A DNA stretch of 64,000 nucleotides, from assembly GCA_000004985.1 (NCBI GenBank), contig GG738855.1. The stretch is one strand, 5' to 3'. The position numbers and the translations under genes were made by a program. Source of the stretch: Naegleria gruberi (lineage: Eukaryota). The notes below the pieces were generated by a model. The model did no database searches, was not told where the DNA came from, and was given only the letters and a program-made list of their open reading frames with translations. Below are positions 2,025 to 53,243 of the stretch, piece by piece (position 1 is the stretch's first letter; each line of letters opens with the position of its first letter).

Positions 2025-4594
2025 ATGTCCTCTCAACAAACCTCTTCACATGGAGATGCAACAACAACCGATGATCCTAACGTTTGGCCCATAGCCTGTG
2101 TCTCTTGTAATCGTATCCACAAAAAGGTTAGTTATTTGATTATATGATTTTTAACAACAGTCATAAAAGTGTGGTATGTAGTCAACACAACAAGTAATTA
2201 ATTAATTAAAATTTAGATAAAAAGCTCCCAAGTTGTTCCCGATGTGCACAAAAAGGGATAGTTTGTGAATACAAGGAGCCAGTCTTTAAGAGAAAGACAC
2301 AAATAGTTTCATCATCTGCCGATCCCTTCCTAAGTTTAAATTATCAACAACAACAACAAACTAATAGACCTATCATTTCAATATTCAACTCTCAACAAGA
2401 ATTGGACGAGAGTGCTACACAAATCATTCATTCAATCAAACACAATACAATAGAAGCATACTGTTTAATTGTTTGCAATGGCTCTCCACCTTTCAGACCG
2501 GAGGATTTGTCGAAACTCTTAACTAATGGACAGGAAATTTTAAAAAGAAAGGATATTCTGGCACTAATGATTTCAATTCAAGGTTGTGTGGAATTGATTT
2601 TTGGTATGTACAAATCCTTGAAAATAGTTTTGTAATTTACAAAAATCAATATTAAAGGATTTTCGGATTTGGCAGAAGAATCTTTCAACAAGGCAAGAAA
2701 TTTAATCATGCATTATTTTGATGATTTTGAAAATCCACTTGCTGCCTGTACATATACACATATTGCTCTTTTTAATGCAACTATTGGTAAAACATGCAAA
2801 GCAAGAGGATATCTTCATTTATGTGAACAATATTTAGTGAACTGGAAACAAAGAAATCCAAATGCTGTCATGACAACTGATCAACCATTTGTTGAAAATG
2901 CAGGAGGATATGGGATTACAATGAATATTCCAAATCTGAGAGTTCAGAACATGGTTGTTGAATTAATTTCTTGTGAAACTCATCCCGTTCCAGACATTAA
3001 AACTTTGGAGAGAATATCTATGGATATCCTTGGCTGTAGTCTGCCCGATCAGTTGAAAGATTTTTTCAAAACTCACCAATTTACAACCAGTAACCTAAAC
3101 CCATCTAATATTGACGAAACTTTACGAGCATTTGAAGTATTTGTAGGGTTGCTCCATTACTCAGTTAGACCAACATTTAGATCAGAGTTTTCAGTCAAGA
3201 TCCACCACATGAATTTTCTGGTTTTGGTGAATGGGTTACGAATTTTATATCTTTTAATTTCTGGTTGTGATATTTCCACAGCATATAATACAATGAATGC
3301 GGAAAATATTGAACAAGTACAATTATTGGAATATGCTGCTCTCACTATTAGCAAACTGACAGAGGATGAATTATTTGTATTCATTTGTCCATATCTTATT
3401 TCATTCTTATTGGTTGCTGTGAGAACAAACTTGGAAATATGTAAGTTATGAATTAATAGTTTATAATATTCATTTAAAATAGGTAAAATGATTGAGAGAG
3501 GTGAAAGAGAAAATTTAAAACCTATACCACCTAAAAAGGAGAGAATCAGTCTACCAAATGTGATAAAACACTACGAAGAAAATGAGCTCGTTGATTACTA
3601 CTCTGTTGTGGAAAAGGATCTGAGAGCTCTACAAGTAATGAGTAAGAGATATAGATACATTGCTCCATACACAAAGGAACTTGAGGAATTTTTGGGAAGT
3701 CTATCTGAAAGACAAAACAAAATCAATCAACAGCAACAATTTTGGTCAATTATGGGACAACAACCATTTATTGAAGAACCATCCTACATGATTAATGGAA
3801 ATGGTGAAATTATTTATATTCCAAATCAACAGCTTCAGAGGCAAGGTACTGAAACAAACAAAATGAATCGGGTGGGCTCATTTTACAATGCAATGAAAGA
3901 CTTTTTGCTGAAATTCAATAATAGAATAGAAGATGCTTTTGAAAATAAGAGTAGTCAATCACCAACTCTTTCAATGACCAGCTCAAACTCCTCCTCATCT
4001 GGGTCATCACAAGGCAATTTTAAGCACTATCTGGAGACTAAACTTAACGAAATTAATGTGCAATCTCTTTCAGACTTGGAGCTATTACTCTCTCACATAT
4101 CAGCCCAACATCAACAGCCAATTCTCTCCAATAACACACCAAACATGGCACCACCAACCTCTTCAAACAACAACATTAATAGTAACATCAATAGCAACAA
4201 TACTATGACAAATAACCTCCATACCAATATTCAACCTCAAAATATTCCATCCATGACCAATAATTCCAATACCCTTCCAATCCAAACCACACCTCATAAT
4301 CCTGTTCTCAATTCTATGCAATACCCAAATAATATGATTTTTGCCAATAATCAAATGGTGCATCAACCAAATAATTATCATCACAACATGCCAAACAATT
4401 CTCTTTCAAACCATTCCACCATTCCTCATCAGCAACAACAACATTTCCAAATGAATCCTTCCCATCATCAACCTCAATTACAATACTTTGACCCACTCAT
4501 GGTTCACCAAGATGGATTTGATGTTTTGGAACTTTATTTGAGACAGCAACAAGATGAAGCTACAATACAACAACAATCCAATCTGAGATTTTAA
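2025..4594 (+). CDS. Fungal-type Zn-cluster (Zn2Cys6-like) transcription factor with Q/N-rich C-terminal tail; join(2025..2126,2225..2603,2658..3440,3483..4594)
   Basis: Exon 1 ends ...IACVSCNRIHKK at a GTTAGT donor. After a 98-nt intron, exon 2 reads LPSCSRCAQKGIVCEYKEP, giving a Cys cluster C-x2-C-x9-C-x2-C-x6-C with the basic linker typical of Gal4-type DNA-binding domains. The middle region (MAEESFNKARNLIMHYFDDFENPLAAC...) resembles the fungal-specific TF middle homology domain. The C-terminal exon (3483..4594) is Q/N/S/T-rich. Introns of 98, 54 and 42 nt all have GT..AG boundaries. Total 2376 nt = 792 codons. Confidence 0.5.
4130..4460 (+). repeat. Coding low-complexity poly-N/Q/S/T tract (SSNNNINSNINSNNTMTNN ... 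HQQQQH) in the transcription factor tail
   Basis: Runs of AAC/AAT/CAA codons are visible directly in the sequence. Confidence 0.6.
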
Positions 4595-40603: not shown

Positions 40604-41640
40604 GGAATATTTTAATAACAATAATTTAATATAAAGGAGATGATGAGTTGTTGAGTTCAATCACCATATGATAACACTCAATGAGCGACCAGGATAAGCA
40701 GTATTGGATGTTAAGAAGGTAATTGAGTCAATTTTTATAATAGTTAACCTGCTTCATGAAAATGTGGCGGCTCCCTATTTGGATAGTGAAAATATGGTGT
40801 TTTTGTTGCCTGTTCAATATTTATTAGGAGCGAGATAAAGAAATGTCTAATAAATCTTGGGTGGATGCAATTTATGTCACGTCCCTTAATAGTTATATGC
40901 TAGACATATTAGTTGTTTGAGTTCGTGGAGAAAGTTTCAGTCATTTTGGTGCATTCCTATTGTTCCAGTTATTGAATCTGTATTTTGATCGAACATTTAG
41001 ATTCCATCATTGGATTCACAATAGTGTCTTTTTCAAAGAACTTGAAAGGTGTAGATTGAACTTGAAGTGATAGGACAATAATGAGAGCAACCTCAAATTG
41101 ACCAAAGATTTTTCTAGTGTCCAATAATTTTGATTAGTTTCCATTTTAAAGATAAGATACATTAAAAACCTTTACAACTATCTCTAATATACATATTTCT
41201 CAATTTATTCTTGCAATCTTCAAGTGTTTCTTCTCTTGATACTATGGAAACAAAATATAACGTTTTGTAATCCATACTGTAGTTAACATGGCTTCATCAT
41301 TTCTAGCGCGGTGAATTTCATTGAACTAGACCATCCAATTCGATAATGGTTGCAAACAATAGTTTCTAATATCGTTCCATTTCACAATTTAAAAACATCA
41401 TTTCACACAACTAATAATGTAATAGAATAAAAGTCGAAACCCTCTTGAACTAGAGAGTAACCTTCATTGATGACTACAAGTATGAGATGAGACTAGATAC
41501 TTGCCTTGAAATTAATTAAAGCTCCTCCACATTCTGGAGTCATGGAGAACCAACACAAAAAAAAACTTCCAATCAAATACCTATTTGAATCTATTTGAAG
41601 AGATTATCATCACTGTGTGTTATCTATTTTTCAAAAAACA

Positions 41641-44600
41641 ATGATGATGATGATGACTACGATGGGAGATAACAACAAACATTCACCGACATTCAAGTTG
41701 GTTGTGCTGATGATTCTTGCTGCAACAGTATTGTTATCATGTGCAGTAGTAGAGGCTTCAAGTAGTAATGGCATTCCTTTCCTTTCCATGATTCATGAGG
41801 AGAATAGAGTGAGCGAAGCAGAAAAAGATAACGGAGGTATTTTCGAATTGACCTTTGCTAATAATCTTTTTAATAATAAGAATCGTTTAAATACTTTAAT
41901 GTTGAGAAGAGAATTGACAAATAGTAGAGAATCAGTTGAACCATATACTCAATTTATTATCAAGTTGAAGGATAATGTTACATCAAGAAAGAGAATGAAT
42001 AGCCAAGTTCAACAATTGATTTCGGGTGCTGTTCCTTTGGGTTCCTCTCAGATCATGTCAGTTGTTGCACGTACATCAGAAATTATTGATCATGTAGGTG
42101 AACAAGATCATCATACCATTGAATGGATTGGAGAATATGAAACTAGATTCAAGTCAAGTCTTCATTTTGCTAAAATGCAAGAACTCGCTAGAAAGGAAGA
42201 AAATCCAGTTAACTCTGATTTGATGGACTTTGTCATTTCAACAATTCCATCCATTGATGCTGTTTCTAAAGGAAGTGAATTGAATGAATTGGAACAAGTT
42301 GCAAAGAAATTGAACAGTCAAATAGGATCACTTTTTGATGTCACTCAATTCTCTCCAATTCAAGTCGTAGATAGAGAAAAGATGCAAATTTCCTTCTCTC
42401 CTCTTATTGCTAAACAAATTTCTGATATTATTTTGGAAAATCCACATGTTCACTTTGTAGATAGAAAGCCAATTTATTCTTTATTTAACAAGGAAGGATC
42501 AATTTCTATGCAATCAGTTTCTCCAACTCAACCACAATCAACTCCATTCTATGATATGGGTATTTATGGAAATGATCAAGTTGTTGCAGTTTCTGATACT
42601 GGTATCGATTGGGATCACTGTTTTTATTCTGATGCAAACATTACTAAAATTGCTACCAACACTGTTTATGCTAATCATAGAAAGATTGTAGAATATAGAA
42701 CTGTTACAGTTTCTAATGGCAATTCTGGTCTTGTTACTTCTGATGGACAAGATGGAATTGACGGCCATGGTACACACGTAAGTTATTTCATTGTTTGATG
42801 ATTTTTTAATTTCAAAATTTACAGGTTGTTGGAAGCGTTGCTGGTTCTATTCAATCACCAATTACAGCTGATCAACAAGCTATTAACAATTATCATGGTA
42901 TGGCTCCAAATGCCAGAATTCACTTTACTGATATTCAAAAAACAGGCAGTAGTGCACTCTTGATTCCAGCTTCGTTGACCAGTATTTTTGAGCCAGCTTA
43001 CAAATTGAATGCTAGAATTTTCTCTAATTCCTGGGGTGCTGCACCAAATAATCTCATTGCTTGTGATTATGACTGTGTAAATTGTAGATGGGCTGTTTCT
43101 GTATCTGTCTATCGTAAAGGTCAACCAGTTTATGATTCTGATTGCAAATACTTGTTCGGCAGTCAAACTTGTTGTTCAATTGTTAATAAGTATGATTCTC
43201 AATGTAGAGATATCGACACCTTTTTGTGGAATAATCAAGATGCTATCATTCTCTTTGCTCAAGGTAACTCTGGTAGAATTTCTTCAAAGGAAAATATTGG
43301 AAGTCCAGCAACTTCAAAGAATGGTGTTTCTATTGGTGCTTCCAAAACTTCAAACAGTGCCTTTATTGATTCAGTTCAATATGAAGATATGATGCACAGA
43401 ATCAAAGAAGCAGGTCTTTCCTTCACTTCCCCAGAACAATGTTGCTCTTACACTGGTAGTAATGCTGATGCCATTCGTGCTTTCTGTTGTTCAGCCACTA
43501 TGAAGGATAAATATTCCAGTAATCCAAGTTATTTCAATGCTGACAATTTAGCTTCTTTCAGTAGTAGAGGTCCAGCTATTGGTGATAGAATCAAACCAGA
43601 CGTTAGTGGTATTGGTGATAATGTTGTATCAGGTCACAGTGATGGTGATACTACCACTTATCAATGCTCAAATATTTCACCAAATTTGTATAACAGAGCT
43701 GCTTTAATGGTAAGTTTTAATTATATAGTTCATAGTGAATTAATATTTGAATTTTTAATAGACAAATCAAGGTACTAGGTAAGTCATTCATTGAATGATT
43801 ATTTTTAATCGACCTCTTAATTTTCACAATTTTTATAATTTTTGTAAATCTTATTAAATAGTATGGCAACACCATTGACAGGTAAGTAATAATTATTATT
43901 ACTTTTTATTAATATATTGAAAAATACACAGCTGGTGGTCTTGCATTGTTGAGAGAATATTTACAAAAGAAGATGGGTATTTCTAACCCATCTGGTCCGC
44001 TTTTGAAGGCTGCTCTTGTTCACAGCTCAATTCCACTCTCTGGAAGTGTTGCTAAAAGCACTGATGAATCTAGTAGAATTTTGATTTCATCAATGGGTAA
44101 CCCTAATTCCTATGAAGGTCATGGTAGAGTTTATCTTGGAAGTTTATTAAAGAGTGGCAACAATTCAACTGTCAACTTGACACTTATTGAGAAGACTTTC
44201 ACATCATCAAATGAAAAACATAGCCGGTGTTTAAAGATGAAGAGCGGTATTTCCTCATCATCATTTGCCAGTACTGTTGCTTGGTACGATTATCCTAGCT
44301 CAGTATCTGTCGTTCCTTCACTTGTTCAAGATATGGATTTGATTGTTAATATTTATGAAAAGAATGGTGACAAGATTCAATCATTGAAGGTTATTCCTGG
44401 TAATATGCAAGACGCATACGATACCAAAAATAATGTTGAAAAGGTTCTTATCAACTCTATTACAAACGCTGGAACCAATCCTCTTTATGTTACTGTTTCA
44501 GTTAAATTCAAAACATTGACACTCTCAAATCAACCATATGCTTTAGTGTTCAGTTATCCAAGTGGTGATTTTGAATCAGTAGATGCCTCTTCATGTTATT

Positions 44601-44809
44601 ATAGTGAAGAATTGCCATCATCTTACATTGGTATTATTATTGGTGTATCTCTTGGTGTCATTGTATTATTATTGATTGTTTCTGTAATTGTTGGATCAAT
44701 TCTTTTCAAACTTTGTACTAGACGTAAACAACACCAACAACACACTGATTTGGATGCTGGAGCTGGCAACTACTATTATTATGGTAATAATGCTGGAACA
44801 GGTTATTAA
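41641..44809 (+). CDS. Subtilisin-like serine protease (peptidase S8), signal peptide and C-terminal transmembrane anchor; join(41641..42777,42825..43709,43762..43778,43862..43881,43932..44809)
   Basis: The catalytic triad is seen directly: D in VAVSDTGIDWDH, H in DGHGTHV (split by a 47-nt intron right after HGTH), and S in GTSMATP. The Ser motif is encoded across two micro-exons of 17 and 20 nt, giving ALM|TNQGTS|MATPLT|AGGLALLREY. There is an N-terminal signal/TM and a C-terminal TM helix IIIGVSLGVIVLLLIVSVIVGSILF. Total 2937 nt = 979 codons. Confidence 0.8.
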
Positions 44810-44866: not shown

Positions 44867-46150
44867 TTAATCAAATATCTCTTTAATAACCTGGTGGACG
44901 TTTAACTCATCTAGAGTGGCAGGTTTGAATTTTGGTTTTTGATCTTTGTCAACTAAAACAGCTCTAACACCTTCCACAAAATCATGTTGCCCAACCAATT
45001 TGGTACACAGTAACTTATCCAAATCAAGAACTTGTTTCAAAGAGCTTGCCTTTCTTCCTCTCTCAAGTGCCTCGAAGGTAACTACAAGAGAAGTAGGGCT
45101 AGCTCTCTTTGAGAATAATTCCAATATAGAATCAATAAATTCATTATCTGATTGACTTCTACATGGATGATGTTCCTTATACCATTTGAGATTTGAAATT
45201 ATTTCCTTAACAGATTGAGCCTCTCCAAAACAGTAATCAATAACACGTCTAAAACGATCAACCTGACCCAATGTTGAATTGAGTACTGTATTGCCTTTCT
45301 TTTCATAAATTTGAATGAATTTTTCCAATTGTTTTTCCAAGTTAGATTCATTTTCTGTTGGAATAAACTTTTCAAATAAATCTCTTCTCAATTCATAGAA
45401 AACTTCCTCATTATCAATAACATTAGTTACCAATTTTGAGAAGAGTGAATCTGTAGCACCCAATTTTGCACCGGTCAATCCAATATATCTAGCAATTCCA
45501 ATTGATGAACAAGCTCTAGTAAGGAAGAAGGAGGCTCCAATATCAGGATAAATTCCAATAAACACTTCAGGCATTGCAAATTGGAATCTCTTCCTATTGG
45601 CCACTCTCAAATTTGTATAAATTGAAATTCCAACACCACCACCCATTGTAATACCATTCAACATGGAAACAATTGGTTTTACTTTACAAAATTCATGAAT
45701 ATAATAATTCAATGAAAACTCCTCGGTGAAGAATTGTTGGGCATATTCAAATCCCCTTCTCAAATCCTTGATATCACCCCCAGCACAGAAAGCCTTATCA
45801 CTAGCACTCTGCAATATCACAAAGTGTACTTTTGTATCGGAGAGAGCTTGCTCTAGAATCCTTCTCAAGGATCGGATCATGGAGAGTGAGAGTGCATTGA
45901 AACTCTTTGGTCTATTCAATGTAATGCACAGACAATGATTGTCTGGATTGTATTGGGAGAGTACATGATCATTGTCATCTTTTGAAGTTTGATTCATTAC
46001 CAATATTACATCATCATTGCAACAAATAGGCCTAGATGAATTTAGCATCATGTGAGCATGGTTAATGTTATTATTATTATTTGAAGGGAAGAGATGACCA
46101 AGAATCCTCTGGGTGCGAAGTGTTGATAATGATTGTTGTGTTGAGGACAT
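44867..46150 (-). CDS. HIBCH: 3-hydroxyisobutyryl-CoA hydrolase (HIBCH; enoyl-CoA hydratase/isomerase superfamily), mitochondrial
   Basis: 427-aa single ORF with crotonase-fold motifs (FCAGGDIKDL, GITMGGGVGISIYTNLRVANRKRFQFAMPEVFIGIYPDIGASFFL) and an N-terminal presequence. Confidence 0.8.
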   Translation of the reverse strand: MSSTQQSLSTLRTQRILGHLFPSNNNNNINHAHMMLNSSRPICCNDDVILVMNQTSKDDNDHVLSQYNPDNHCLCITLNRPKSFNALSLSMIRSLRRILEQALSDTKVHFVILQSASDKAFCAGGDIKDLRRGFEYAQQFFTEEFSLNYYIHEFCKVKPIVSMLNGITMGGGVGISIYTNLRVANRKRFQFAMPEVFIGIYPDIGASFFLTRACSSIGIARYIGLTGAKLGATDSLFSKLVTNVIDNEEVFYELRRDLFEKFIPTENESNLEKQLEKFIQIYEKKGNTVLNSTLGQVDRFRRVIDYCFGEAQSVKEIISNLKWYKEHHPCRSQSDNEFIDSILELFSKRASPTSLVVTFEALERGRKASSLKQVLDLDKLLCTKLVGQHDFVEGVRAVLVDKDQKPKFKPATLDELNVHQVIKEIFD

Positions 46151-46326: not shown

Positions 46327-48198
46327 ATGTGTGGTATTGGGGCAAGATTTTCTCTCGGAGCATCTTTATCCAAGTGGAATTTGTTGGATTTGCACTTTTT
46401 ATTACAATATGGAATGGTTGTGAATAGTAATAATCAACAACAGGTTGTTGAACAAGAAGTTAGAAACGAAAATAGTGTTGTTGTTGATGACGACTCAGAA
46501 GAAAATGATGGAAGAAACGAAACATTTGAACAGAAATTAGAAAAAATCAAGGCTATTACTGTACAAAGTACTCAATCGGAAGAGGTGGATATTATTTCTG
46601 GTATTAAAAGTGTTATTTCTCCAAGAGGTCCAGATGAAACTCGTCACGAAATTATTAATTTTGGAGATTCTACAGTGACACTTATTGCTAGTATTTTGGC
46701 TCTCAGAGGTGATAAGCCATACCCACAACCTATTACCATGACTGATTTGTCTGGTGACGAACACACAATAATATGGAATGGAGAAATATTTGGAAATGAA
46801 TATTTCAGAGAATGTGTTATTGAGCATGGAAATGATACAGTTTGTCTATTGGAACATTTGGTAAAATGTGGAAATGAGGATGAAGTTTTGAATACTTTGG
46901 CTAATATTGAAGGACCTTTTAGTTTTGTCTATGTCAATAAGAGGGAAAAATATGTGTTGTTTGGAAGAGATATTTTGGGAAGAAGAAGTTTGTTATATTC
47001 TGTAAACGGTCAAGATTTGATTATTTCTAGTGTAGCTTGTCACGTTCCAGAATTTTCTCAATGGAGGTCAATTGGTGTGAATGGAGTTTTCAAATTATCC
47101 CTTAGCGATGAAACTGGTTCACAATTGCTTTCCATGATTTCTTGGGAAGAAATTTACAAGAGAACTGGTAAACATCCGTTAATATCCGATAGAGAAATGA
47201 TAGAACCAAAGACTGAAGATGATTTGCGAGTGAATGATACAGTATTTGAGAGTGTTGTCGATGAGTTCATTTCATATCTTTCAAATTCTGTTGAAAAGAG
47301 AGTGACCAATGTCTATTCCAATAATGATGAAAATACCAAAATTAGTGTTTTATTCTCGGGGGGAATTGATTCAGTAATTATAACAGCATTGGCTCATTTG
47401 AAGCTTGAAAAAGGAATGCCTATTGATTTATTGAACGTCTCATTTGGAGTTGATAAAAAGCAACAGGATCAATCAGCTGACAGAAAGCAAGCCATAGAAT
47501 CCTACGACGAGTTGGCAAGACTTTACCCTGATAGACCTTTCAGATTGGTTCTTGTTGATATTAACTCAACTGAATTAGCAGAAAATCAAAAGAGAATTGA
47601 ATCACTCATTTATCCACAAAATACTGTCATTGACTTTAATATTGGATCAGCATTATGGTTTGCCTCAAGAGGAAGAGGATACATTTACAATTCTTCAGAG
47701 CCAACCAACACATCAAATTTGTACACTTCAACAGGCAGAGTCATTTTGTGTGGTATTGGCAGTGATGAACAACTTGGAGGTTACAAGAGACATTTTAAAA
47801 AATACAAGTACAAGGGTTGGAATGGTCTTAACGAAGAAATGGATATGGACATTAAGCGGTTATGGATTAGAAACTTGGGAAGAGATGACAGAGTAATATC
47901 AGATCATGGAAGAGAATCTAGAAATCCATTTTTAGATGAGCCATTCATTAATTTTGTTAGAAAACAACCATTATGGTATTTGGCTGATTTTACCAATAAC
48001 CAACCAAATGATAAGCCAACCCAACAACAATCAACCACATTACCAGGTGATAAGAAAATACTGAGGAGAGCAGCTCAAAAACTTGGTCTTTCTAGGTCAT
48101 GTATGTATGTTAAAAGGGCAATGCAATTCGGTTCCAATGTGGCTAAAATATCCTACAAGAAACAACATGCAAGCACTATACTTCAGATTGAGTATTAA
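46327..48198 (+). CDS. ASNSD1: Asparagine synthetase domain-containing protein 1 (ASNSD1)-like
   Basis: 623-aa single ORF. It begins MCGI (N-terminal nucleophile Cys of class-II glutamine amidotransferases) and has the PP-loop SGGIDSVIITALA of the asparagine synthase domain. Confidence 0.78.
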   Translation: MCGIGARFSLGASLSKWNLLDLHFLLQYGMVVNSNNQQQVVEQEVRNENSVVVDDDSEENDGRNETFEQKLEKIKAITVQSTQSEEVDIISGIKSVISPRGPDETRHEIINFGDSTVTLIASILALRGDKPYPQPITMTDLSGDEHTIIWNGEIFGNEYFRECVIEHGNDTVCLLEHLVKCGNEDEVLNTLANIEGPFSFVYVNKREKYVLFGRDILGRRSLLYSVNGQDLIISSVACHVPEFSQWRSIGVNGVFKLSLSDETGSQLLSMISWEEIYKRTGKHPLISDREMIEPKTEDDLRVNDTVFESVVDEFISYLSNSVEKRVTNVYSNNDENTKISVLFSGGIDSVIITALAHLKLEKGMPIDLLNVSFGVDKKQQDQSADRKQAIESYDELARLYPDRPFRLVLVDINSTELAENQKRIESLIYPQNTVIDFNIGSALWFASRGRGYIYNSSEPTNTSNLYTSTGRVILCGIGSDEQLGGYKRHFKKYKYKGWNGLNEEMDMDIKRLWIRNLGRDDRVISDHGRESRNPFLDEPFINFVRKQPLWYLADFTNNQPNDKPTQQQSTTLPGDKKILRRAAQKLGLSRSCMYVKRAMQFGSNVAKISYKKQHASTILQIEY

Positions 48199-48253: not shown

Positions 48254-51200
48254 ATGTCTACCGATAGAGGTAAGGGATCAATTTTCATAATTACCTTAAT
48301 TACTTGTTAAAATTCAAATTGATATAGCTCCGAATACATTCACTGTTGGTAAGACACCATGGGTAAGGTTTACCAATAAGGAGAATGTATACTTTTATGC
48401 TAAACCTTTCAAAACTGATAGAGAGTAAGTAAGGCAAAACAAGAATAGGGTTGATGATCATAATATAATAATATTATAGTAAAATTTGGCAAGAAAAAGA
48501 AGATCCAAAAACAGGAAAGGTATTCTATTATCATTGGGCTTCCAAGACATCCTTAAATTCCTACACAGAATTTCCTGACTATGTAACATTAGCTGAGAGT
48601 GGAGCTACAACACCAACTACTCCAACAACACCAACGACACCAACTACAACAACAAATACTTCTTCACCAACAACAACAGCCTCAACAACTCCTGCTCAAT
48701 CAACACCAACATCCGCATCAGCAGCAACAACGTCCACCCCATCATCAGAAAACACATCTCAACAAGAAGATAAAAAGGTTGAAAATACAACAATCGAAAA
48801 AGTCGAGGAAAAACCAAAGGAAACAATAGCGGAACAAAAGATAGAATCAATACCTAAGGATACTGAAACTAAGGTCGAGAGCAAAACCGAAACGACACCA
48901 AGTGAGGAGGAACCTAAGAAAGAGTCACCTAAGAAACAGGAACCAAAAGAAATCAATTACCTCCCCTCCAAAACAAGAAAGACAAGAAGAACCTGTAGAA
49001 AAGCCTTTGCTAAAAAAAGAACCAGTTGTTGAGCAATCTAAACCTGTTGAGACACAACCTGTTATTGAGCAATCGAAACCAGTACCTGTAACAACAGCAC
49101 CACCAAAGGAGGAACCAGTAGAGCCAAAAGAATCCAAACAAAAGAAAGTAGTTCTGGAAGAAGATCCAAAACAAAAAAAGAAGCAAACTCAAAATGAAAA
49201 TCAAAAGCCAAAAGCAATGACGATGGTCCAAGGAAGTAGTGGAAGTGCTGGTGCAGAGGATTTTAAAGATTTTGGCCCAAATCAACCAAAACCAAGATTA
49301 TCATTTATTGGAAAACGTCAAAGTCAAGTGAAGGTTTCATTTACTAAGAAGGATTTAGCAAGAACCGACTTTGATGATTCAATCGAAGATGGTATGTTTT
49401 CAAAGTTTCTTTTTTATTAATTTTCAAAGAATTATTCAATTTACCTGGAAGAGGAGAGGTTAAGGTTCATACAGCTTTTAAGGGAACATATTTTTCAACT
49501 GTAAGTTGTTTTTACAAAAAATTAATTTATACTTTAATAGCCTAAAACCAAAAAAGATAGAATTGTAATTTTAGCAAGAGATTTTGTTGGTGCATTTTGT
49601 CTCTTTATGGCAGGCCAAGAAGGAAAGAGGTTTGTTTTTAAGATTTTAGTTTATCTCACAAATTCAGCAATAAGAAGAACGTAATTTTAGCTGCTTATCC
49701 ACTACTTGATTATTCAGATATAAATGAAGATAAGGACAAAATTACATTAAATATTGATGGGAATGAGTTTGTTTTACAAGCTAGTGCAGTAAGTAAGGAA
49801 AGATTAAAGCTAGGCCTGGAAGTTGCTTATGGTGAACTAGATGCAAAAACAGACATGGAGTTACATAGTAAGTTTTTACTAATTTACAATTAGTTTACAC
49901 CTTCATAGATTACAGACTTGGTTCTATCGAGTTTGCAAACTCCTACTATCAACAATATGTTGATGTTCCTGCCTCTTCAATTATCAAATCTATTATGGAG
50001 TCAGATCCTAACGAGATTTTAGATGAAAGTATCCAAGAAAGTTCTGATACTTTCGTTTCTAGCAAATATGATCAAAGTCTTAGATTACTCCAGACAGCTG
50101 TTAAGAATAGCAATGACAGAGATAGTGCCATCCAAGAAGCTTGTTTGTACATGGAGAGAATTATAAAAAAGATTGACAAGGGTGTATTTGAAAAATTCTC
50201 AAGAATATTGGATATTATATTCAAAAACCCAACAACTACTGAACGGCCTGAGCTCAGAAATAACTTTTTAAAGACAATGAACGACATCAGAAATAGCAAG
50301 AAAATTGCTGATAACATTATTGATGAATTGATAAAGACTGGTAACGAAAGCTTTAAGGCTATTCAGTTATGGAGGTCAAGAGCCAAATTGAAAGAAGTTC
50401 CTTTTGGGGAGGAATACCAACCAGCCACACAAAAATCAAAAGGAAAGAAGGAACTTCAACAAGAAAAGCTTATGAGAGAGTCAATAATTCAAAAAAAGTT
50501 GCCTTCTGGTGTTTTTCTTGGTGTACTATTCTTTTCCAAGACTGGAGAAGTTCTCTCTGATAGAAATGACAATTTACCAAGTGTTAAGTTAGATCGGTTA
50601 ATGTATCATAATGAAAATTCCAAGAGCTTAGACCATCAAGATTGGCAGTGGTTGCTGAAACATGGACAACAATCCTTTACTCAAACAATTTTAGATTTAG
50701 TCCCTTCGCTATCTAACCCTCAAATTATTTTAGATGTATTTAAAACTGATTTTATTAGGTCTTTTAACGATTTATATAGAGCTGTAAATCAGTCAACCAA
50801 GCCAAATGTAGATCTGGGTGTATTGTTGGATAAGTGTGTAACAATGAAGGGCCAAAATATTTTATATTATCTGATGGTTAAACAAGTAGATAAGAAGGAG
50901 TTTGAAATTCCTAATGGGTACAAATGGGATCCAACTATTGATTTTGAGTATAAGCAATATCAAAAATATGAAAACCTAGACGAATCATTTGTGATTGAAA
51001 AATTAGAAAGCCATTACTCGGGATCTAGATGGGTCTATAATGCCATGGATTACTACAAGTCAGTTACTTCGAAAACCTACTCTGACGGCTTGTGGCTGGG
51101 ATACTTCAATTTCAAGTTGACTGAAAGAGGTTCTTACCAGCTCTTAGTGGAAGATAAAGCTAGATTCATGATTCCTTCCATTAAGATTTCAGACAAATTT

Positions 51201-53243
51201 GATATTAGAAAATTGAGGGATTTACTTGCTAATAATTTCTCCTCCTTGTCTTCAGTTACAAATATTAATGAAGAAACACCAGACTACTTGTGTGAAACTT
51301 TAGAGAAACAAGTATTCCGAGCCAAACTCCAGTTACAACAAAAGATTTGTAAACCAGATTTGGGCTATCTTTACACGAATGAAATTTTAGATGTCGGTGA
51401 AAGAATCAAACTTATCCTCTTTATTGATAATGATACTACTTCACAGATTGGAAATGAGTACAATAGGGTTCTTTGGAGAGATGAGATATCATTTGAGGCT
51501 ATTCACTTATCATTGTTTTATCCTGTCCTTCATGAGCACTACATGGGAAACATTCGAAAGCAATTACTATTTGATAATTCTGTTTTCAATGATAGCTCTA
51601 CATCAAGTGATGAATATTTGAAAAATAAGGAGGTCAATAATATAGGAAGACTGAAAGAACTGATTAGAGCAGAAGAAGCTTTCTACATTATTAGGTGGCC
51701 ACACCGAGTTATTTCAACATACTTATCTATCAAGCAGAACAACAATGCAATCTTACACTTGATAAATAATGGTAAAGAACTTGCCAAGATTGTTTTTGAT
51801 CAAACTATTGGTAAGAAGAAAACCTTTAGAGATTATAGGTTGGAGCTTTTCAAGGCGCAAGATAGTCAAGAAATTGCAGCTAGGAAACAAAAAGAAATCG
51901 AGTCCAAATCAAAAGTTGGCATTCAGGAACAAGATTTAGAAAAGTCGACGTGTGCCGTTTACAACGTTGATGCAAACATTGAGGATATCCGTGATATTGA
52001 ATTGATAATGATCGGACCGACCAGGGAAGAAGTTTTGACTAATTTGATTGAAGAAGAAGTTGAATTAAATATTGTAGATCACTTGGATAGACTTGAACTT
52101 GAAGCAATCAAGAGTACCTTAGATGATGTTATATCTATTATTGAGGTTACCACTGACATGGTTGATAAAACTATTTTTGAACAAAAGAAGGCTGAATCAA
52201 AAAATCATCTCAAAGCAGAAAGGGTTGATTATATCCAATCAGTATTCAGTGGTATAAAATTTGAAGTAGAAAAGACAGAAGAAGACAAGATTGAAATTGA
52301 AGGATATGACTCATTATACAGACAATCCATTCAACTCTTTGATGCTTCTATGGATAGTTCACTTCTTTTACTTCAAACCATAGAAAAGACTCAATCAATG
52401 ATTGACCTGGTCGAGGTGATGTTTACACATGATGACAATCTTGAAAAGCAAGACAAAGTGGTCCGATCTATTCAGAGGATTAAGGATAGGCAAGCTGAAA
52501 TTATGGCAGCCCAACCTTCATTCCCTGTACTTCCAACACCGACTCACAACCACAGTGCAAATAATGCCATTCAACAATCAGCTTCTCAAATTTTGAATCA
52601 ACCAATTCATCCAACTGTTCTCCAAGCTAAAGCAAATATCAATCTAGATGAAGAAAAACTAAGACAAATGCTGGAAGAGGAGGAACGAAAGAAGACTGAA
52701 GAATACGATAGAAAGATGAGAAAATATGTACAAAAGGCAACAGGTTTTTCTTCTTTTTCTCTTCCATATGGTACTCCTCAACAATTTGTTAAGAAGAGAC
52801 CACAGAGTAATAAGCCTTCATCAACAAATGCAAATACTTCGACAAACTCTTCTATGCTGTCTAATAAGAGTATTACTGCTAATTCTCCATCAACCTCAAT
52901 GCTTAGCTCCCTACAAAATACACCAAGTACTCCACAAGAAAAGAGTAAGAAACCAACCAGTAGTTTGGCTCAGTCAATCCTCTCCAAACCAAAAACCTCA
53001 TCAACCAAACCAAACTCTTCCAAACCAGAGTTACCATCCCTTGATGGAAAACCTCACTCTTCAGCATATATTTCATTTGATACCTACAGAGACATGATGG
53101 GTCTGAGTTCATACAACAAGTTTTTGAATCAGAATAATGTTCTCTCCAACTTGGATTCTTGTCTGAAGAATTATAATGATGCCAAGAAGGCCAGTGACCA
53201 AGCTATTTTATCCTTACTTCCATCAACAAGTAAAAAAAAGTAA
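48254..53243 (+). CDS. Large multi-exon gene of unknown function (WW-like domain, T/P- and E/P/K-rich linker, PH-like segment, about 1100-aa uncharacterised C-terminal region); join(48254..48269,48328..48424,48480..49391,49430..49500,49541..49629,49668..49867,49894..53243) with a 1-nt frame discontinuity near 48960
   Basis: Exon 1 (MSTDR) ends at a GTAAGG donor. Exons 2-3 encode APNTFTVGKTPWVRFTNKENVYFYAKPFKTDR/DKIWQEKEDPKTGKVFYYHWASKTS (WW-like), followed by a TTPTTP... repeat and an EQSKPV repeat. Canonical introns of 58, 55, 38, 40, 38 and 26 nt link this region in frame to ORF 49995..53243 (1082 aa, no recognisable domain), whose reading frame is open upstream of its first ATG. Total exon length is 4735 nt; it becomes 4734 = 1578 codons only if one nt is dropped in the poly-C tract, where the coding frame shifts by +1. 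Confidence 0.45.
48590..48730 (+). repeat. Coding Thr/Pro-rich repeat (TTPTTPTTPTTPTTTTNTSSPTTTASTTPAQSTPTS) in exon 3 of the large gene
   Basis: Repeated acaccaac/actccaac units are visible. Confidence 0.55.

Follow-up and report, generated by a model that had tools for sequence, protein, structure and literature searches.

Two micro-exons of 17 and 20 nucleotides split the catalytic-serine motif of a predicted membrane-anchored subtilase gene in Naegleria gruberi

Results

A five-exon subtilase gene with two micro-exons

We analyzed a 64,000-nucleotide stretch of contig GG738855.1 of Naegleria gruberi (GenBank assembly GCA_000004985.1), referred to here as the window (GC content 33.8%), and concentrated on a plus-strand gene that encodes a predicted serine protease of the subtilase (S8) family. 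Five plus-strand exons, at 41641-42777, 42825-43709, 43762-43778, 43862-43881 and 43932-44809, join into an uninterrupted open reading frame (ORF) whose sole TAA is terminal. Read from the first ATG at 41641, the coding sequence is 2937 nucleotides (nt) long and the spliced product has 978 amino acids (aa); counted from a GTG at 41617, the spliced length is 2961 nt and in frame. The third and fourth exons are only 17 and 20 nt long, and the spliced reading across them is NRAALM TNQGTS MATPLT AGGLALLREY. The active-site motif GTSMATP is present only once both micro-exons are joined, with the serine codon itself split as AG^T (the caret marks a splice junction throughout). The features of the gene are as follows.

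41641-42777 (+): exon 1, 1137 nt; hydrophobic N-terminus, pro-region, Asp319 and His376, ending right behind HGTH; based on ORF 41617-42798 and the spliced translation, with Asp319 and His376 invariant and the start codon presumptive
42595-42597 (+): catalytic Asp319, codon GAT, motif SDTGID, in exon 1
42766-42768 (+): catalytic His376, codon CAT, motif HGTH (DGHGTH), in exon 1
42778-42824 (+): intron 1, 47 nt, phase 0, cac^GTAAGT...TTTACAG^gtt, GC 0.19, with a TTAAT branch-like motif at -16
42825-43709 (+): exon 2, 885 nt; central part of the S8 domain, including Asn527 and Cys-rich insertions, ending NRAALM
43266-43268 (+): oxyanion-hole Asn527, codon AAC, motif AQGNSG, in exon 2
43710-43761 (+): intron 2, 52 nt, phase 0, atg^GTAAGT...TTTAATAG^aca, GC 0.15
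43762-43778 (+): micro-exon 3, 17 nt, ACAAATCAAGGTACTAG (ACA AAT CAA GGT ACT AG); TNQGT and the first two bases of the Ser680 codon
43779-43861 (+): intron 3, 83 nt, phase 2 within the Ser codon (AG^T), tag^GTAAGT...TTAAATAG^tat, GC 0.19
43862-43881 (+): micro-exon 4, 20 nt, TATGGCAACACCATTGACAG (T ATG GCA ACA CCA TTG ACA G); third base of Ser680, MATPLT and the first base of Ala687
43882-43931 (+): intron 4, 50 nt, phase 1, cag^GTAAGT...ATACACAG^ctg (ACACAG acceptor), GC 0.14
43932-44809 (+): exon 5, 878 nt including TAA; AGGLALLREY, C-terminal beta-rich domain (WYD...NNVE), transmembrane segment YIGIIIGVSLGVIVLLLIVSVIVGSILF and Tyr-rich tail; based on ORF 43946-44809, the spliced translation and the alignment, the C-terminal domain aligning to SubHal/KP-43

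All four introns begin with GTAAGT and end with CAG or TAG, none of their lengths (47, 52, 83 and 50 nt) is divisible by three, and at two of the four donors the context extends to TAG^GTAAGT and CAG^GTAAGT. Composition switches sharply at every boundary, from a GC content of 0.34-0.45 in the exons to 0.14-0.19 in the introns. A TTAAT element (YTNAY) stands at -16 to -24 in introns 1, 2 and 4, and the nearest one in intron 3 is at -42. Intron 1 adjoins the codons CAT GGT ACA CAC of the HGTH motif, and its removal restores HGTH^VVGSVAGS, which aligns with the homologs. Introns 2-4 are all placed within 37 nt of coding sequence, and the resulting three GTAAGT sites within 173 nt on one strand are unusual. 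Across the whole window, GTAAGT is not enriched: the two strands together have 25 sites, and shuffles predict 24.5. By itself the donor motif is therefore no evidence, and the case is carried by homology and reading frame. We call an exon a micro-exon if it is internal, at most 30 nt long, bounded by AG^exon^GTAAGT on both sides and needed for the frame, a pattern that occurs twice in this gene.

The initial annotation, drawn from the letters and a list of ORFs, had placed the micro-exons at 43762-43778 and 43862-43881, and these limits proved exact. Its canonical TAG/CAG acceptors were found at all four introns, as were the dependence of GTSMATP on both micro-exons and the intron directly behind HGTH. 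It had counted four GTAAGT donors within 43710-43931; three lie in this interval, and the fourth belongs to the intron at the His motif, 900 nt upstream. It was also right that ORF prediction misses both micro-exons: the six-frame list gives the large exons as separate ORFs and neither of the small ones.

Two observations concern the ends of these features. Five consecutive ATG codons (MMMMM) open the coding sequence at 41641-41655, leaving the true start ambiguous. At the 5' end of intron 4, a 21-nt near-perfect palindrome (43884-43904, the AGTAATAATTATTATTACTTT region) could form a hairpin beside the donor.

The product is a predicted membrane-anchored S8 protease

The spliced product matches the Pfam Peptidase_S8 profile (PF00082) with E=1.2e-37 and 130 bits, against a cutoff of 21.8, over residues 310-727 and profile positions 1-274 of 288. 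The catalytic triad follows in the order Asp-His-Ser, with D319 in SDTGID, H376 in DGHGTH and S680 in GTSMATP, and all three residues are invariant in an alignment of 15 sequences (the window protein and 14 homologs), as is the column of the oxyanion-hole residue N527 in AQGNSG. The protein starts with a hydrophobic signal or anchor and a pro-region of ~280 residues; the S8 domain, which carries Cys-rich insertions, is followed by a beta-rich domain, a single transmembrane segment and a short Tyr-rich tail. Among solved structures, the nearest are those of SubHal (5fax) and KP-43 (1wmd), high-molecular-mass subtilisins of Bacillus, matched in the catalytic and C-terminal domains with E about 1e-31; in one phmmer stretch, query positions 323-577 align with positions 196-412 of the 5fax chain and pass through WYD...NNVE. 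By sequence, the window protein shares with these enzymes (MEROPS S8A) the triad, the DTG, HGTH and GTSMATP motifs, the oxyanion Asn and the C-terminal beta-rich domain. In contrast to the window gene, KP-43 and SubHal are bacterial, secreted and intron-less, whereas the window protein has a long pro-region, Cys-rich insertions of ~60-120 residues, a C-terminal transmembrane anchor with a Tyr-rich tail, and a split gene. Taken together, these features suggest a type-I membrane-anchored protease of the KP-43/SubHal kind, with both its activity and its membrane topology predicted. The cytosolic tail ends in a Tyr-rich stretch (NYYYYGNN, window 44740-44806), and YY occurs near the C-terminus of paralogs as well (e.g. 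DYAYYSKRN, EFNYYKR and EYYYRRDS); it may be a sorting motif.

Homology supports the exon model

The protein collection that we searched covers N. lovaniensis, N. fowleri and Willaertia magna and holds no N. gruberi entries. The spliced product matched S8 proteins of all three species with 38-52% identity and up to 97% coverage. In a codon-level alignment, the two micro-exons contribute 12 residues, all identical to those of the continuous exon MTNQGTSMATPLTAG in the best homolog, P0001 of N. lovaniensis, and the segment NRAALMTNQGTSMATPLTAGGLALLREY is free of gaps in the 15-sequence alignment. The window protein also has the shared residue in every column where the other 14 sequences agree, D319, H376, N527 and S680 among them. 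Because the micro-exon residues are identical to those of P0001 and the invariant residues are kept, we conclude that the exon model is right. The same conservation argues for a subtilase gene under purifying selection, not a pseudogene, and is indirect but strong evidence that the mature mRNA would include the micro-exons. A search with a degenerate pattern of micro-exon 4 and its splice sites gave one match, L011, a GC-rich bacterial sequence that we regard as chance and irrelevant.

Every mis-splicing outcome is unproductive

We computed the products of intron retention and exon skipping. Retention of intron 1, 2, 3 or 4 leads to a stop after 385, 696, 680 or 688 aa, respectively, and skipping of exon 3, exon 4 or both leads to a stop after 698, 697 or 680 aa. 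Every one of these outcomes stops within 24 codons, and none yields an in-frame alternative protein. The skippable lengths of 17, 20 and 37 nt are all non-multiples of three, unlike a frame-preserving cassette, and the frameshift that the initial annotation had expected from skipping either micro-exon is borne out. Since only unproductive outcomes are possible, splicing could act at most as an on/off valve, and not as a source of alternative or catalytically dead isoforms.

Intron positions across the homolog family

Annotated proteins were threaded onto their genomic loci and the codons around the catalytic Ser were aligned, for ten heterolobosean homolog gene models and one partial metagenomic contig. 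In the window gene the introns near Ser fall at ATG^ACA (phase 0), in the AG^T Ser codon (phase 2) and at G^CT (phase 1). Around the same codons, the other genes read as follows.

P0001, P0003 and P0005: intron at CAA G^GA
P0006 and P0007: intron at AG^T GGC
P0009 (Willaertia magna): intron at A^GT, inside the Ser codon as well and 1 nt upstream of window intron 3
L010 (metagenomic homolog): intron at ACA G^GTTAGT, with the position and phase of window intron 4; ORF uninterrupted up to there
P0013 (Willaertia): intron at GCA G^GT, 3 nt downstream of window intron 4
P0002 (N. lovaniensis, corrected model): intron at GTG^GCT, 1 nt upstream of window intron 4
P0011 (N. fowleri): no intron near Ser
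L012 (outgroup Thecamonas): a single intron, at codon 35; none in the catalytic domain

The paralogs P0001-P0013, annotated as 'Peptidase S8/S53 domain-containing' in N. fowleri, N. lovaniensis and Willaertia, share with the window gene the signal-to-transmembrane-anchor architecture, 38-52% identity and short GTAAGT introns concentrated at the catalytic motifs. They differ from it in having at most one intron in the Ser region and no micro-exons, and their intron positions are 1-10 nt off those of the window gene; the exception to these offsets is the metagenomic L010, which has window intron 4 in common. The position of intron 2 has no counterpart in any homolog examined. Counting the window gene, the family has eight distinct intron positions within 14 codons around Ser.

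Short GTAAGT introns are the family norm, with GTAAGT at 23 of 29 donors and lengths of 40-175 nt (median 69) in the ten gene models. The exon ends are protosplice-like in context (AG in 14/29, G in 22/29). Across the family, 14 of 19 distinct positions lie at most 8 codons from D319, H376, N527 or S680, a zone that makes up 10.6% of the domain columns. The binomial probability of such clustering is about 1e-10 if positions are treated as independent; after near-coincident positions are collapsed, leaving eight clusters with six at catalytic motifs, a hand estimate is of the order of 1e-5. The remaining clusters also lie in conserved blocks (FSSRGP and the CC motif).

In a neighbor-joining (NJ) tree, two N. 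fowleri/N. lovaniensis clades (P0001, P0003, P0005 and P0002, P0004) have the window gene as their sister; its position outside both has 92% bootstrap support, and the group as a whole has 100%. A direct orthology to P0001 or P0002 was ruled out by this placement.

For the catalytic Ser, the window gene, P0002, P0009 and P0013 use AGT or AGC, and P0001, P0003, P0005, P0006, P0007 and P0010 use TCN. Mapped on the tree, the two codon types imply that a single family switched between AGY and TCN at least twice at an essential nucleophile (the 'two serines' problem). AGT is the codon in both genes whose Ser codon holds an intron.

Gene models of relatives

The public models of two relatives depart from the family pattern. 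In P0002 of N. lovaniensis (PYSW02000014.1, L002 4030-4160), the annotated reading GTSMATLLW^EYFQ is without eight conserved residues, PLVAGAAA. A homology-consistent intron (GTAAGT at 4054, CAG at 4131) gives MATPLV^AGAAALIREY only with one added C (ACC CTC to ACC CCT), and the cause is an indel in the assembly or else a young frameshift. The sequence of its N. fowleri ortholog, P0004, is intact. In P0005 of N. fowleri (VFQX01000029.1, L007 3359-3591), an annotated 233-nt 'intron' holds an 84-nt exon that encodes VRNACCPSQMKTRYTSNPSIFNEFNLAS and is homologous to an exon of P0003. The model is without this 28-residue exon, about 50 codons upstream of the Ser region, and the exon's donor has GAAGTT in place of GT, through either mutation of the splice site in a decaying copy or a sequence error.

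Neighboring genes in the window

Downstream of the subtilase gene, a single minus-strand ORF at 44867-46150 encodes a 3-hydroxyisobutyryl-CoA hydrolase (HIBCH) homolog with an Asn-rich N-terminal extension and 58-63% identity to N. fowleri and N. lovaniensis. Both the subtilase and HIBCH match N. lovaniensis and N. fowleri best, at 49-63% identity across the pair, and Willaertia comes after them. No HIBCH gene is among the called flanking genes of homolog loci L001-L007. A single plus-strand ORF of 623 aa follows at 46327-48198, and to judge by eye from its N-terminus (MCGI...), it may be asparagine-synthase/amidotransferase-like. The next plus-strand gene, at 48300-53243, is apparently multi-exonic, with several short introns, exons of ~70-90 nt and then a 1082-aa terminal ORF. 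Its donors are GTAAGT at 48425, 49501 and 49868, GTATGT at 49392 and GTTTGT at ~49630, and a Thr/Pro-rich low-complexity stretch covers 48600-48760. A further micro-exon in the GTAAGT cluster at 49501-49868 was ruled out, as the site at 49789 reads through as coding sequence (GCA GTA AGT).

Discussion

Probable constitutive splicing of an intact protease gene

We think it probable, at roughly 85%, that the locus holds an intact and functional five-exon S8 protease gene whose two micro-exons are spliced constitutively, and that the Ser region is a local extreme of a family-wide placement of introns at catalytic motifs. Each short intron would be recognized as a unit across its own length (intron definition), aided by the perfect GTAAGT donors. 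Exon size would then not be limiting and the 17- and 20-nt exons would be joined constitutively, while any failure of splicing would leave a frameshifted or stop-containing mRNA. Under intron definition, how efficiently splicing proceeds is set by the length of the intron and not that of the exon (reviewed in PMC3488318), so that exons of 17 and 20 nt should in principle be no obstacle. As the introns are short and their donors perfectly complementary to U1, efficient constitutive splicing by intron definition is to be expected.

Some points weigh against this interpretation. Exons of 17-20 nt put the upstream branch site and 3' splice site ~25-45 nt from the downstream 5' splice site, a spacing that reportedly causes steric interference in exon-definition systems, as in work on the c-src N1 exon. 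Splicing may therefore have to be ordered, with some inefficiency, and crowding of neighboring spliceosomes could impose the order of removal. In addition, the spliced-junction sequence ATGACAAATCAAGGTACTAGTATGGCAAC had no match in the metagenome and metatranscriptome contigs.

Origin of the introns in the Ser region

Two histories could have produced three introns within 37 nt of coding sequence. The first is that an ancestor of the Naegleria/Willaertia subfamily had introns at about three places, all kept by the window gene, most lost by the paralogs and some shifted by 1-3 nt. In its favor are the exact match of intron 4 in L010 and the near-coincident introns, 1 nt off in P0002, 3 nt off in P0013 and 1 nt off, within the Ser codon, in P0009. 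The window gene also branches off ahead of the duplication from which the two N. fowleri/N. lovaniensis clades arose (92% bootstrap). The 1-nt offsets of intron 3 from P0009 and of intron 4 from P0002 are inside the accepted range of intron sliding (PMC3488318). However, inheritance requires many independent losses and shifts of 8-10 nt of the first intron group across invariant coding sequence, and the sample is of eleven genes. We give this history somewhat under even odds.

The second history is a recent and independent gain, in this Naegleria lineage, of two or three introns in a continuous exon at an insertion-prone site. Intron 2 (ATG^ACA) is unique, and the nearest paralog introns are 8 and 10 nt away (AG^T GGC and CAA G^GA); sliding over 8-10 nt through an invariant motif is implausible, with statistical support for sliding limited to 1 nt (PMC3488318). 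The intron-free catalytic domain of Thecamonas and the lack of an intron near Ser in P0011 point the same way, and the exon ends TAG^ and CAG^ resemble protosplice sites. Against recent gain, L010, a member of the other main Naegleria-type subclade (NJ bootstrap 94-100%), has an intron identical to intron 4 in position and phase, and intron 3 shares a codon with a Willaertia intron. Nor did the 64-kb window hold a sign of gain by introner elements or tandem duplication: blastn-short gave chance matches of at most 17 nt, and pairwise intron scores were within about 1.3 standard deviations of shuffles. The introns show no resemblance to coding sequence. We give recent gain of the set slightly lower odds than inheritance. 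The introns need not share one history, in that the exact match in the other subclade favors inheritance for intron 4, and the unique position of intron 2, 8-10 nt off across invariant codons, favors an independent event.

On a wider scale, the clustering of introns may reflect their known tendency toward conserved regions together with frequent G-rich, protosplice-like contexts. We regard it as rather unlikely that the catalytic motifs, and the Ser motif most of all, form a genuine hotspot where introns were repeatedly gained and/or migrated over short distances. In chymotrypsin-family serine protease genes, it is a classic observation that the catalytic His, Asp and Ser are encoded near splice junctions. 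The intron positions of this subtilase family are likewise close to catalytic residues; the two differ in that the folds and families are unrelated and that the subtilase positions vary between paralogs and are not conserved.

Regulated splicing or a dead locus

The initial annotation had raised alternative splicing of the micro-exons as a possible point of regulation. On this account, inclusion or retention would be regulated, for example between amoeba, flagellate and cyst stages, and would tune protease output through unproductive splicing and mRNA decay. Such a switch would be effective, as every mis-splicing outcome destroys the ORF within 24 codons, and three introns in 222 nt offer three chances for retention. 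Among the modes of alternative splicing, intron retention prevails in eukaryotes other than animals, and RNA-seq of N. gruberi has shown it (PMC6142364, which cites the public data set PRJEB23822); some retention at the Ser region is plausible. Regulation nevertheless found no support here. Skipping of 17, 20 or 37 nt leaves no frame-preserving alternative, all donors are perfect GTAAGT, whereas weak sites are usual for regulated exons, and the paralogs have one or no intron here, so that this is no conserved regulatory module. The introns resemble neither each other nor the rest of the window and yielded no conserved element, and an Rfam scan of 42700-44000 gave no snoRNA or other RNA family. 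We therefore consider regulated splicing improbable. That the apparent introns are pseudogene disruptions or assembly errors is scarcely credible: relatives do show problems of this kind, with the 1-nt frame problem of N. lovaniensis P0002 exactly here and the GA donor of the N. fowleri P0005 exon, but removal of four perfect GT-AG introns restores a 2.9-kb ORF with every family-invariant residue, and composition switches sharply at each exon/intron boundary.

Comparison with known micro-exons and implications

S8 subtilases, micro-exons and split catalytic codons are already known, and so are near-coincident intron positions in paralogs. Our literature search found no report of micro-exons in Naegleria or of this subtilase family. 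Like the micro-exons of plants and animals, including those in tandem clusters, the two described here are internal coding exons far below 30 nt between canonical GT-AG introns that escape ORF-based and many ab initio predictors and can be recovered by protein homology. They differ from the neural cassette type, whose lengths are multiples of three, in that they shift the frame if skipped, have very short flanking introns and show no sign of regulated inclusion.

By itself the finding opens no long-standing question. For annotation, ORF-based or ab initio methods will drop exons of 17 and 20 nt and leave two fragments or a 'protease' without its nucleophile. As public models of relatives carry such errors, counts of active proteases and pseudo-proteases in Naegleria depend on homology-aware splice modeling, and some Naegleria proteases are discussed as virulence factors. 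The family is also a compact example of clustered, non-identical intron positions and bears on the debates over intron gain, intron sliding and protosplice sites. If the catalytic motifs were a true hotspot, this small family would be a natural system for asking how and where spliceosomal introns arise in a lineage with short introns, and it might connect the AGY/TCN switches of the catalytic Ser codon with the turnover of introns.

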